The notes beneath the pieces were generated by a model. That model was not told the DNA's origin, made no database searches, and saw only the letters and a program-made list of their open reading frames with translations. A stretch of 64,000 bases of DNA from Escherichia coli (GTDB taxonomy: Bacteria; Pseudomonadota; Gammaproteobacteria; Enterobacterales; Enterobacteriaceae), in the NCBI RefSeq assembly GCF_050920415.1, contig NZ_CP169309.1; one strand, written 5' to 3'. The translations under genes and the position numbers were made by a program. Shown piece after piece: positions 4,822 through 13,102 of this stretch. Each line of letters starts with the position of its first letter. Position 1 is the first letter of the stretch.

Positions 4822-4934
4822 GTTCCTGCACCTTATAAAGCGGGTGCCGGGGGTCGCAGCCCGGAATTGCATACGGCGATATATGACGCGCCAGCGTCTT
4901 TTTTATCGTCCGCGCTCACGCACGCCAGAATTAT

Positions 4935-5013
4935 GGTGGGCTGGGCAGGGGAGCCGAAAGGCTCGCCGGTTTCCGTATGCGCCGGTACTGCGAACCCTGT
5001 TCAGTTCACCACC
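4935..5013 (+). ncRNA. c4-like antisense RNA, copy A (~79 nt)
   Basis: Terminal stem GGTGG/CCACC and inner stem CAGGG/CCCTG. Hairpin GAGCC-GAAA-GGCTC. Loop tccgtatgc (4972-4980) complements gcatacgga (5052-5060) over the Rha SD. ctgcgaa (4988-4994) complements ttcgcag (5021-5027). Confidence 0.6.
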
Positions 5014-5070
5014 CATGAGTTTCGCAGCTCCGGTGGTGGAAGTTATCCATTGCATACGGAGGCTGCCATC

Positions 5071-5474: not shown

Positions 5475-5587
5475 GTCTCTGCACCTTATAAAGCGGGTGC
5501 CGGGATTGGCGTCCTGAAATTCAATATAGAGCATAACCGCGCTCATGCGGTTTTTTCGTGTCATGAGCATTGCTACGCCCAAATTAT

Positions 5588-5666
5588 GGTGGGGCGTGCA
5601 GGGGCATCGCAAGATGCGCCGGGTTCTATGTTGACCGGTTACGCCAACCCTGTACGTCTCACCACC
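5588..5666 (+). ncRNA. c4-like antisense RNA, copy B (~79 nt)
   Basis: Same scaffold as A (GGTGG/CCACC, CAGGG/CCCTG). The hairpin is changed compensatorily to GCATC-GCAA-GATGC. ctatgttga (5626-5634) complements tcaacatag (5704-5712). acgccaa (5641-5647) complements ttggcgt (5674-5680). Confidence 0.6.
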
Positions 5667-5723
5667 TCTGTGATTGGCGTCCCATGTGGTGAGTTCTTTG
5701 AATTCAACATAGGGGCTGTCACC

Positions 5724-9689: not shown

Positions 9690-9943
9690 ACAACCAGACA
9701 ATGACTTTTACCCCTGAACAATTACGCAAACAGGCGCAGGAAATGCTGCGACAGGCGGAACAACTGGAAAAATCAGGCGTAACAAAAGATGCCATTCGTC
9801 GGGATATGGTACCCGCGCTCAGAGAACTGATGCAGGCAAAACACCGCGCACAAAAAGCGGTGGATGAGCTGGTGGATTGTGTGGCAGAGCTGGAAACAAA
9901 AGTTGGAAAATTTGAAAAACTGGTGCAGGAGGTACTGCGCTGA
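9686..9943 (+). CDS. Hypothetical coiled-coil protein
   Basis: ORF packed between the helicase and the Q-like gene. Start is uncertain (TTG 9686 or ATG 9701). Confidence 0.45.
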
Positions 9944-10308
9944 TGCGTGATATTCAGATGGTTCTTGAGCGTTGGGGGGCGTGGGTGGCAAATAACCACG
10001 AAGATGTTACCTGGTCGTCGATTGCTGCGGGATTCAAAGGACTGATTCCGTCAAAGGTTAAGTCACGTCCGCAATGTTGTGACGATGACGCGATGATCAT
10101 TTGTGGTTGCATGGCTCGTCTGAAAAAGAACAACCGTGACTTGCATGATCTGCTCGTGGATTATTACGTTGGGGGAATGACTTTTATGGCGCTTGCAAGG
10201 AAACATGGACGTTCAGATTGCTGGGTTGGTCGTTTGTTGCAAAAAGCAGAGGGGATCGTGGCTGGTATGTTAATGATGTTGGATGTCAAACTAGAGATGG
10301 AATATTAA
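9943..10308 (+). CDS. Late-gene antiterminator, Q-like (small Phage_antitermQ type)
   Basis: Last gene of the early-right operon. RWGAWV....W and [10 protein letters not shown] resemble the ~120-aa antitermination protein Q family (from memory). Confidence 0.55.
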
Positions 10309-10475: not shown

Positions 10476-11663
10476 TTACTCCATGCTAAGTGAATCCTGA
10501 TAGCGCTTAAATGCCTCCGCGAAAGCTAGAGCAGCATCAGCATTTGATACCATGTATTCTTCTGTAATGCCTGTTTGGGACTGGAAATATAACTTTCCAT
10601 AAATGCAAATTGGGATTTGATAGTTATCTTTAAATCGTCGGTCTGGTGAGCCATCTTTATTTGTTTTTGCCCATGTATGCCCAGCTATGCTGGCATCACT
10701 CGGAACACCATCCTCTTCATGGAACCCTTGATGCTGCGCATTAATTTGTAATTCCCGTAAGTCAATCAGAGCAAATGCCCCATCGGGGCGAGGAATTACA
10801 GCAATACCCGGATAAAGCAATATATCGTCGCCATTGACATTTTCAAATCGCATTGCTCTTCCAGTAAAACGAATTAGATCTGTTGAAGCGAAATCAAATA
10901 CGACTGGATGACGATCAACTGCTCGTGTAGCTAACGTCCTTTCTGCAAACTGATCTATAGCTTTATCTGCGGTAATATCCCATTTTTTGATACTTGATTT
11001 TAAAATATCGAAAGCACGAATCATTGCTGCATAAGCCCGCTGTGAGGAATCGCTGGTTTCGAAATTAATGACGATTTTAGTGTTATCTTCCCAGGATACA
11101 AGACGAGATACTTCTGCTTGTATTTGTGGTAGCGTTGCTTCAAGTTCTGCAATGCGACGTTTATAAAACCATCGAAACAGGCTTGATTTACGTCGAGCCA
11201 ATTCACTCTTTTGTCTTGATTCTTCTGCAAGAGCCTCTTGTAAGTCAGATGCTATTTCCGCTCTTTGTTCTCGTGCTTTAACGATCAAGTCTCGTAAAGG
11301 TAAAAGAGATGTACTTGTCAAGGCCTCTACTGAGGCACTGGAGATTTCATTCATGCCTGTTTGTGGCATGTACATTTTTGCGTTTGATGGGGTGTTGTCT
11401 GAAATTAACTCGGGTGCATCAATATGAGATTCTACAGACGACGGATTTAGCTGAATGGTTGTGGATGGTTTGTCTTTGTATGGTAAACGAGGGGATGTAT
11501 ACGATAAACCAGATCCTGGTAACCCTAGAGTTGCTTTAATTCCTTTTTGGTTAACATTAACTGTGGCTCCGGGGACACCAAAACTTGCGCTTACCCCATG
11601 TTTACCGATGTTAAGGCGTACTCCGGGGAAAATGGTAAAAGTTTGTCTGAAGCGAAGAGACAT
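10476..11663 (-). CDS. DUF4236-like protein (395 aa), function unknown; reverse-oriented moron
   Basis: N-terminus: RFRQTFTIFPGVRLNIGKHGVSASFGVPGATVNVNQKGIKATLGLPGSGLSY (DUF4236 signature, from memory). Then a P/S linker, a coiled coil and an unknown C-terminal domain. AT-rich. Confidence 0.75.
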   Translation of the reverse strand: MSLRFRQTFTIFPGVRLNIGKHGVSASFGVPGATVNVNQKGIKATLGLPGSGLSYTSPRLPYKDKPSTTIQLNPSSVESHIDAPELISDNTPSNAKMYMPQTGMNEISSASVEALTSTSLLPLRDLIVKAREQRAEIASDLQEALAEESRQKSELARRKSSLFRWFYKRRIAELEATLPQIQAEVSRLVSWEDNTKIVINFETSDSSQRAYAAMIRAFDILKSSIKKWDITADKAIDQFAERTLATRAVDRHPVVFDFASTDLIRFTGRAMRFENVNGDDILLYPGIAVIPRPDGAFALIDLRELQINAQHQGFHEEDGVPSDASIAGHTWAKTNKDGSPDRRFKDNYQIPICIYGKLYFQSQTGITEEYMVSNADAALAFAEAFKRYQDSLSME

Positions 11664-11886: not shown

Positions 11887-11911
11887 AGAAAACCCCCAGC
11901 TAGGCTGGGGG
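11887..11911 (-). terminator. Intrinsic terminator, minus strand
   Basis: CCCCCAGC-cta-GCTGGGGG followed by TTTTCT on the minus strand. Back to back with the plus-strand terminator. Confidence 0.5.
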
Positions 11912-12037
11912 TTCCGGAAAGCTTTCAGCTTTGAGCCAGTTATTAAAACCCCTTTTGATTTGTTAAAACACCTTGCGGTCTGGCAACTTCTTAACTCACT
12001 TATTGTTTCCACCCATGTTTTTGGATACCTGCTGTAG

Positions 12038-12074: not shown

Positions 12075-12362
12075 ACAACGAATCCTTCTGATCTGCTTTT
12101 GCGGGGCTTTTTTGTATCCGCTCCATGCCCGGCGTATAAGCGGAGGTTGGTCAGTTTTCTAAAAATTGAAATACCTCACAATTCAGCCAGTTAATGGTTG
12201 TTTGTCTGGCGAAGAGTTTGTAAATAAAAAAACGCATGGTGAATCCCCCTAAGCGGCGGGGCGAATCAGCAGTCAGTTCTGGGATAATCGCGGGTTCGTA
12301 TGCTGATGCCGGACTCACCGGGAGGCACCCGGCACCATGCATCATGGTCATCCCCTTGTATG

Positions 12363-12389
12363 ATACCCCTCTCCGGAGGGGTATTTTTT
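12363..12389 (+). terminator. Intrinsic terminator
   Basis: ATACCCCTC-tccg-GAGGGGTAT followed by T6. Confidence 0.75.
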
Positions 12390-12393
12390 GGAT

Positions 12394-12421
12394 AAAAAAG
12401 CCCGCGCTGGGAGGCACGGGC
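12394..12421 (-). terminator. Possible minus-strand terminator
   Basis: GCCCG...CGGGC followed by T6 on the minus strand. Confidence 0.3.
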
Positions 12422-12644
12422 GGCAAGGAATAAAACGTGAAGAAATTTTCACAGGCGCATAATAATCCGATGTTGCCAGATTTTGCAACTGCATCATCTG
12501 GTTATTATGTGAGCTGGAAAATCAGATTCTGTATGGACTGAAGCCATGCTGTTATTCAGGGCCAAAGAACGGACTTTTTCTTCCGCCTTTCAGGTAACGA
12601 TTAATGAGAAAAAGACTGAAATGCCCCCTCGGGGAGGAGGATAG

Positions 12645-12741
12645 TAGAAAAAAGAACCCGCCAGCAAAAATATTGGGGGGATGAACAGCTTTCGCTACTC
12701 TGGTTGCTGGCGGGTATAGCTCCTCATGAATAAGAATGTCG
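12645..12741 (-). ncRNA. Candidate ~95-nt minus-strand sRNA, antisense to the late leader upstream of the holin
   Basis: Predicted start lies about 7 nt after the -10 at 12753..12748. Ends in a 12-bp perfect stem (12715..12704 with 12667..12656), which encloses an AGC-GAAA-GCT hairpin, followed by TCTTTTTTC. Confidence 0.35.
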
Positions 12742-12747
12742 CGGTAT

Positions 12748-12776
12748 TTTTTAATGGAAATGAGAATCATTGTCAA
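12748..12776 (-). promoter_or_regulatory. Sigma70 promoter for the candidate sRNA
   Basis: On the minus strand: TTGACA (12776..12771), 17 nt, TAAAAA (12753..12748). Confidence 0.45.
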
Positions 12777-12822
12777 CTGATTGCGTGTGTTGTCTTCATA
12801 CATGACTGGTAAAGGTGATTCA

Positions 12823-12853
12823 GGCCATCAGAGTTTTGCTGATGGCCTTTTTT
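12823..12853 (+). terminator. Intrinsic terminator immediately upstream of the holin
   Basis: GGCCATCAG-agttttg-CTGATGGCC followed by T6. Confidence 0.7.
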
Positions 12854-12886
12854 CTTTCCGGTAGCACAGGTCTGTCGGGGCGGGAT

Positions 12887-13102
12887 ATGTATCAGATGGA
12901 AAAAATATCAACAGGCATTGCCTACGGCACCTCCGCAGGCAGTGCTGGCTACTGGTTTTTACAGTGGCTTGATCAGGTCAGCCCGTCACAGTGGGCTGCG
13001 ATTGGTGTACTGGGAAGTCTGGTTCTGGGCTTTCTGACTTATCTGACGAATCTGTACTTCAAAATCAGAGAAGACAGAAGAAAGGCTGCGAGAGGAGAGT
13101 AA
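12887..13102 (+). CDS. Class II holin, S21-type pinholin with dual start (MYQM)
   Basis: 71 aa: ...[67 protein letters not shown]. This is near-identical in pattern to phage 21 S (from memory). Confidence 0.85.

Follow-up and report, generated by a model that had tools for sequence, protein, structure and literature searches.

A predicted small-RNA gene, probably Fur-repressed, opposite the late genes of an Escherichia coli prophage

Late region of the prophage and architecture of the unit

The window, a stretch of 64,000 nt of Escherichia coli DNA (GCF_050920415.1, NZ_CP169309.1), contains a lambdoid prophage whose plus-strand genes encode, besides the Q antiterminator and the holin, a DUF1327 protein, a lysozyme and Rz. 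The late region includes the following features:

9943-10308, plus strand: Q antiterminator of the prophage late region
10476-11663, minus strand: DUF4236 cargo protein of 395 aa, between Q and the sRNA cluster and opposite to the late operon
11891-12005, plus strand: STnc490 (Rfam), with its own terminator
12205-12393, plus strand: STnc100 (Rfam), related to PasD, with its own terminator
12394..12465, minus strand: second sRNA-like module resembling the PapR 3' part, immediately downstream of the candidate sRNA and on the same strand
12822..12854, plus strand: intrinsic terminator (12822-12848 by the scanner), just upstream of the holin ribosome-binding site
12887..13102, plus strand: P21-type (class II) holin with a dual start, MYQM... 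(Pfam PF04971, E = 1.2e-35)

The unit considered here occupies the minus strand of the gap that separates STnc100 from the holin, and 111 nt part it from the holin ATG. With STnc490 and STnc100, both on the late-gene strand, the Q-to-holin interval has no fewer than four sRNA-like units. Also in this interval, a small conserved hairpin at 12531-12549 (GTATGG...CCATGC), whose variants pair through G-U in the plus sense only, suggests a structure in the leader of the late transcript. Elsewhere in the window, two tandem isrK-like RNAs (4828-5016 and 5481-5669, plus strand), each with a C4 antisense RNA behind it (Rfam matches of 59-83 bits), constitute a duplicated immunity and antirepressor control region of the P1/P7 or Gifsy type.

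An initial annotation had proposed that a near-consensus promoter and a terminator direct an independent minus-strand transcript of ~95 nt from this gap. All of its motifs were found in place on the minus strand by direct reading. Two further elements had been overlooked, a Fur box in the promoter spacer and a second sRNA-like module that follows the unit on its own strand. The parts of the unit are:

12771..12776, minus strand: -35 hexamer TTGACA of the predicted sRNA promoter, read directly
12756..12774, no strand assigned: Fur-box-like 19-mer GGAAATGAGAATCATTGTC, filling the promoter spacer
12748..12753, minus strand: -10-like hexamer TAAAAA, read directly, behind a 17-nt spacer (12770..12754)
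12648..12741, minus strand: predicted sRNA of ~94 nt, its 5' end placed to within about 3 nt and its 3' end in the U-run
12717..12741, minus strand: single-stranded 5' region with the conserved core AUUCUUAUUCAUGAGGA, a candidate seed on the basis of conservation
12656..12715, minus strand: terminator hairpin, a 12-bp stem with a C-rich loop, arms ACCCGCCAGCAA (12715..12704) and TTGCTGGCGGGT (12667..12656)
12647..12655, minus strand: U-run UCUUUUUUC (tail read as TCTTTTTTC), read directly after the stem

The promoter has a perfect -35 hexamer and perfect spacing; "near-consensus" overstates the -10 hexamer, which matches at four of six positions and is without the conserved final T. For this reason TTGACA-17-TAAAAA was not flagged by a simple consensus scanner. 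The Fur-box-like 19-mer agrees with GATAATGATAATCATTATC at 15 of 19 positions and is the top match in the 64-kb window, where consensus matches as good are expected about 0.16 times. A position weight matrix built from 13 ChIP-validated Fur sites of CFT073, with a leave-one-out range of 10.8-25.4 bits, assigns it 20.4 bits, and the runner-up site in the 64 kb scores 14.1. The site, which overlaps the core promoter and scores inside the ChIP-validated range, is kept in all five lineages (17.8-22.5 bits; the K-12 ryhB box scores 18.8). The promoter spacer is the classical repressing position for Fur, and this in-silico site suggests that Fur probably represses the sRNA promoter. In the CFT073 Fur ChIP data, the iro and pap2 regions of that strain are without the element, and c1255 shares the iroB peak; no mapping of the pS88 qRT-PCR ORFs 130-132 onto the element was obtained.

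The hairpin has the makeup of an intrinsic terminator, a 12-bp stem with eight G-C pairs followed by UCUUUUUU, and the AGC-GAAA-GCT hairpin inside its loop extends to 7 bp (12700..12683, minus strand). RNAfold gives -29.7 kcal/mol for 12742..12645 of the minus strand (z = -3.8; none of 200 shuffles as good), and the plus-sense copy folds at a z of only -1.8. A loop of 36 nt is unusual for an intrinsic terminator, and because of it a simple scanner that allows loops of 3-8 nt did not flag 12656..12715 as a terminator. No Rfam family matched the candidate at gathering scores or at relaxed thresholds (E up to 10), and literature searches with sequence strings did not find the RNA; a paper on sRNAs in outer-membrane vesicles covers Rfam families only. 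Evidence from the single sequence is moderate, and the case that the arrangement is more than chance rests on comparison with relatives.

Conservation and related units

Of 5426 complete E. coli genomes, 1430 contain a module of ~350 bp around the unit (about 12507-12853). The allele of the window is carried by E. coli 20Ec-P-124 (99.7% identity) and by S88/pS88. In the set of GTDB species representatives the module is confined to E. coli and Shigella, and it was found in none of 50,697 phage genome records. It is absent from DLP12 of K-12, whose IpeX was judged irrelevant to the candidate, and apparent relatives at L147 and L162 proved to be chance matches inside a coding gene. In intact prophages the module precedes a P21-type holin behind cargo that varies, being an AB5 toxin with an ADP-ribosyltransferase in some and a DNA methyltransferase in others.

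The initial annotation had made the unit's standing depend on its conservation upstream of related holins, and comparison of 23 distinct variants bears the expectation out. TTGACA is unchanged in all 23, the spacer is 17 nt throughout, and TAAAAA is kept in every variant except one copy, which has TAAAAG. The hairpin with its U-run is the best-conserved segment, with a mean pairwise difference of 0.057 where the flanks have 0.15-0.29; the six consecutive U after the stem are invariant, and a U-run flanks the conserved hairpin on the minus strand only. The stem showed no covariation inside the window-type lineage, and its two single changes disagree on strand: the ColV change gives A.C on the minus and G.U on the plus strand, and that in L185 does the reverse.

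The unit is also kept, without holin and lysozyme, in decayed remnants of the prophage on ColV-type conjugative plasmids (iroB-iss) and in an island adjoining papI. These remnants have accumulated 0-1 private changes in the 72 columns of the hairpin segment as against 3-5 in the 32 columns of the plus-strand terminator; in the prophage copies, three single changes in that terminator (12822..12854) retain G-U pairing in the plus sense. Copies of the module such as L004 2501-2792, L188 21742-22103 and L005/L006 2501-2788 represent hundreds of ColV-type plasmids and the chromosomal island near papI, and pseudogenised Rz and transposase fragments lie beside the retained module in these plasmids or the island.

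Units of the same build, with other bodies, were located in further prophages:

NC_011601.1 1060614-1060740 (L190 2115-2241), minus strand: unit of prophage PP4, read directly
L066 3796-3930, minus strand: L066-type unit, TTGACA-17-T(T/A)(A/G)AAA promoter, CCGCCAG hairpin
L018 840-959, plus strand: unit with TTGACA-17-T(T/A)(A/G)AAA promoter, CCGCCAG hairpin
L032 5789-5935, minus strand: unit with TTGACA-17-T(T/A)(A/G)AAA promoter, CCGCCAG hairpin; nhmmer E = 0.0036

TTGACA is common to the PP4, L066/L018 and L032 types, with TTAAAA, TAGAAA and TATAGA as their -10 hexamers. The related types, folded separately, all end in a GCCAG/CUGGC hairpin with its U-run in the minus sense, and the stem pairing survives C-G to G-C, C-G to U-A and A-U to G-C changes among them, with a G-U intermediate in L185. 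The window unit has the full order by which such a family can be delimited: TTGACA, 16-17 nt, TAnAAA, a body of 45-60 nt, a GCCAG...CUGGC hairpin and a U-run, in the minus sense. Sequence comparison describes a modular family with a shared promoter and hairpin base and variable bodies, of which the window unit would be one allele. The L066/L018 type is common in Stx-like prophages, and the L066, L018 and L032 units diverge from an ORF for a small membrane protein (MTFLNQ...).

The PP4 unit of enteropathogenic E. coli (EPEC) E2348/69 lies between PasD1 and the holin, opposite to the late genes, and consists of TTGACA, an AT-rich Fur-like spacer, TATAGA, a body of ~93 nt, a GCCAGCGCAGA...TCTGCGCTGGC hairpin and a U-run whose last position is 1060614. 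It resembles the window unit in its slot between an sRNA of the STnc100/PasD type and a class II holin, in strand, in TTGACA, in its length of ~93 nt, in the GCCAG...CUGGC hairpin and in the U-run, and its Fur-like spacer scores 14.9 bits. The two differ in hairpin loop (18 nt in PP4, 36 nt in the window) and in body and seed, PP4 having CAUAUCAUUUCUCCAC, which is complementary to the Shine-Dalgarno (SD) sequence and AUG of entC. Neither an nhmmer profile nor a covariance model matched PP4, and the best blastn E-value was 0.026, so that homology rests on a collinear gapped alignment of the two modules with a shuffle control (score 75 versus 28.5 +/- 4.8 for dinucleotide shuffles, z = 9.6). The same comparison with the PasA module gave z = 0.9 for the window and 6.4 for PP4.

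Published RIL-seq data contain an RNA from the PP4 unit. The table enters it as a minus-strand RNA2 (1060613-1060654/672) under CDS E2348C_1013 (PMC8550237), and the 3' end of this RNA (1060613) is within 1 nt of the predicted end of the PP4 U-run (1060614). The RNA was recovered in 263 chimeras with the entC 5'UTR (p = 4e-165) and in 537 with the nlpD-rpoS region (p = 4e-78), was always the second RNA in its chimeras, and had trans-encoded host RNAs as all of its recorded partners (PMC8550237). Its RNA-seq base mean was 2064, with a log2 change of -2.9 in an hfq mutant, whereas the neighboring holin was silent, with a base mean of 5 (PMC8550237). The PP4 RNA is demonstrably abundant, Hfq-dependent and Hfq-bound, and joined to the entC and rpoS leaders; it could derive by processing from a longer transcript. 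Because it was labeled as CDS E2348C_1013 it was never named as an sRNA, and the main text of the publication makes no mention of it (PMC8550237).

In silico, the PP4 5' region can pair with the SD and AUG of entC at -30.4 kcal/mol (z = -3.5). Pairing of this kind is absent from the window allele, whose 5' region is predicted to pair with the start region of rpoS (-23.6 kcal/mol, z about -3.4, in a post hoc test); of the other lineages, three show a weaker form of the rpoS pairing and one shows none. A role of 12717..12741 as a seed for the rpoS start is a hypothesis only. For the L066 type, too, pairing with the start region of entC is predicted (z = -3.0).

Among characterized sRNAs, close parallels in build are PasA and PasC (EcOnc51/52), validated Hfq-dependent prophage sRNAs of EPEC and EHEC (PMC8550237; bioRxiv 10.64898/2026.05.13.724894). 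As read at both loci, they share with the window unit the slot immediately before the holin-lysozyme operon, the orientation opposite to it, a TTGACA -35 hexamer, a short length (~80-85 nt) and a terminator hairpin of the GCCAGC type that ends in a U-tail. The proposed seed of PasA overlaps a hairpin arm, and its longer read-through form, which extends to a second downstream terminator, parallels the tandem PapR-like module of the window; unlike the window unit, PasA is without a Fur box. Homology of the candidate with PasA or PasC was rejected, since blastn gave nothing significant, Smith-Waterman scores stood at z = 1.8-2.3 against shuffles, and covariance model R1 had no match at either locus even at E = 10.

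RyhB, an Hfq sRNA of ~90 nt whose promoter is spanned by a Fur box and whose GCCAGC...GCUGGC terminator leads into a U-run, likewise resembles the candidate; its body is dissimilar and it belongs to the core genome, whereas the candidate is accessory and mobile, with an iron regulation that is predicted. The anti-sRNAs AgvB and AsxR (RF02702, RF02703) and PapR are also short prophage Hfq sRNAs found between Q and the lysis genes; they run antisense to late or toxin genes and combine a conserved 3' part with a 5' part that varies. The terminator and body of AgvB and AsxR are unlike those of the candidate, and RF02702 and RF02703 did not match it at gathering scores or at E up to 10; as a positive control, AgvB was detected in locus L066. 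That AgvB copy (L066 1641-1700, minus strand) is convergent to STnc100, where the PapR 3' end sits in other loci, and PapR, AgvB and AsxR appear to share one conserved 3' module. The candidate is not PapR, the 3' part of which is represented by the separate adjoining module. This second module has a terminator at 12421..12400 and a promoter-like TTGCAA-18-TATTAT at 12488..12459 (scanner), matches PapR cloning primers and aligns with PapR of the UTI89 type. The UTI89-type 5' part is absent, and a 22-nt complementarity to papI was not found. Read-through from the candidate into the module could give a longer RNA comparable to the minor form of PasA. The candidate would be a further member of the known class of prophage sRNAs of the Hfq type.

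Alternative readings of the stretch

An 83-aa ORF on the minus strand (12552..12803), dismissed as non-coding in the initial annotation, keeps an open frame in the window and the lineage nearest to it, and some relatives have a 63-aa 'hypothetical protein' annotated by RefSeq on the plus strand. That either is a real protein gene is nonetheless barely credible: the 83-aa frame has no Pfam match, contains indels of 1-2 nt and is broken by stops and frameshifts in four of five lineages, and the longest ORF shifts in strand and frame from lineage to lineage. A conserved 10-codon minus-strand ORF (MRSYTRQQPE) was likewise judged non-coding, having mostly non-synonymous substitutions and no SD. It is unlikely, though a more serious possibility, that the plus strand is the functional one, as a late-leader structure or as a rightward sRNA of ~75-80 nt (about 12775-12853), and that the minus-strand promoter is fortuitous. 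A good plus-strand terminator (12822-12848) is preceded by a conserved stretch of 30 nt (12790-12821), where plus-strand matches to SgrS (RF00534) reach 29.4 bits in the window and 24.8 in L003; a ryhB-like -10 hexamer (TATTGT or CATTGT) overlaps the Fur box; and the ColV stem change and the variants of the 12531-12549 hairpin keep their pairing in the plus sense only. Against this, an acceptable plus-strand -35 hexamer is lacking, the SgrS matches fall below the gathering score of 37 and disappear in L179 and in the commonest lineage, the U-run of the conserved hairpin is on the minus strand alone in every related type, the PP4 signal is from the minus strand, and in the remnants it is the plus-strand terminator that decays and the minus-strand unit that does not. 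Plus-strand Rfam matches to Qrr and PrrF were all sub-threshold, and SgrS was rejected as an identity. A rightward sRNA from the shared Fur-box region, ending at 12853, is possible alongside the leftward one.

Other readings accept the minus-strand elements and assign them another task. The proposal of a cis-acting RNA, which would pair as an antisense with the late-operon leader and so damp leaky expression of holin and endolysin in the lysogen, draws on the RNA's full complementarity to any late transcript that crosses 12648-12741, on the short distance to the holin and on PasA chimeras with the overlapping esterase 3' region, which indicate that cis contacts occur in this class of sRNA. Yet the unit is intact in the ColV plasmids and the pap-linked island, from which holin and lysozyme have been deleted; a plus-strand terminator already stands between it and the holin; the recorded partners of its PP4 relative are all encoded in trans; and the pairing predicted between the C-rich loop and the holin ribosome-binding site is unremarkable, being equalled in 3.8% of windows. 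The silence of the EPEC holin while the PP4 RNA is abundant fits either view and shows no link. Cis damping, suggested in the initial annotation, is consequently quite improbable, and the action in trans that was offered there as a second option fits the data on the PP4 relative. More improbable still is that the hairpin is an insulator only, which stops leftward transcription of morons such as bor/iss from entering the Q region and makes no dedicated RNA: relatives do have minus-strand genes of the bor/iss type on the far side of Rz, and hairpin and U-run work in the minus sense only, but the invariant TTGACA with its fixed 17-nt spacing, the Fur box, the strictly conserved 36-nt loop and the discrete Hfq-bound RNA at the PP4 homologue are all left unexplained. 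An independent minus-strand sRNA gene, with a product of ~94 nt, is the best reading in view of motifs, fold, conservation and related units.

Proposed action and significance of the sRNA

The stretch is probably a small-RNA gene opposite the late genes, the product of which would be Fur-repressed, Hfq-associated and trans-acting. For the window allele itself, we infer transcription, Fur control, Hfq dependence and targets from sequence and from its relatives. RNA polymerase would start at about 12741 from TTGACA-17-TAAAAA and stop at the 12-bp hairpin and U-run at about 12648. The product, of ~94 nt, would have an unpaired 5' region, a C-rich loop with internal structure and the sort of U-tail to which Hfq binds. 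Given the Fur box in the promoter spacer, the RNA is predicted to be repressed in plentiful iron and made when iron is scarce. It would then pair in trans with host mRNAs, assisted by Hfq, and it probably acts on host genes rather than on the lysis genes of the phage and responds to iron.

A broader and more tentative proposal, which is possible and at present rather doubtful, is that a mobile family of Fur-repressed sRNAs travels with P21-type lysis cassettes, its alleles swapping seeds and so rewiring host regulons during iron starvation. Alleles of the PP4 and L066 types would shut down entC, and with it enterobactin synthesis, the window type would pair with the rpoS start, and the unit would have been retained by itself in ColV plasmids (iroB-iss) and in the pap-linked island.

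The unit is very probably a real and so far unnamed sRNA gene of E. coli prophages, virulence plasmids and pathogenicity islands. It is carried by about a quarter of complete E. coli genomes, including ColV-type virulence plasmids and islands of extraintestinal pathogens, and is unannotated and absent from Rfam. Its analysis also draws attention to the EPEC RNA of PP4, abundant and Hfq-bound in published data yet left without a name because of its listing as a CDS. If the unit encodes an iron-responsive Hfq sRNA, it would constitute a horizontally acquired layer on the iron and stress circuits of pathogenic E. coli, and the family would offer a natural series for the study of mobile sRNAs that keep promoter and terminator while exchanging their seeds.
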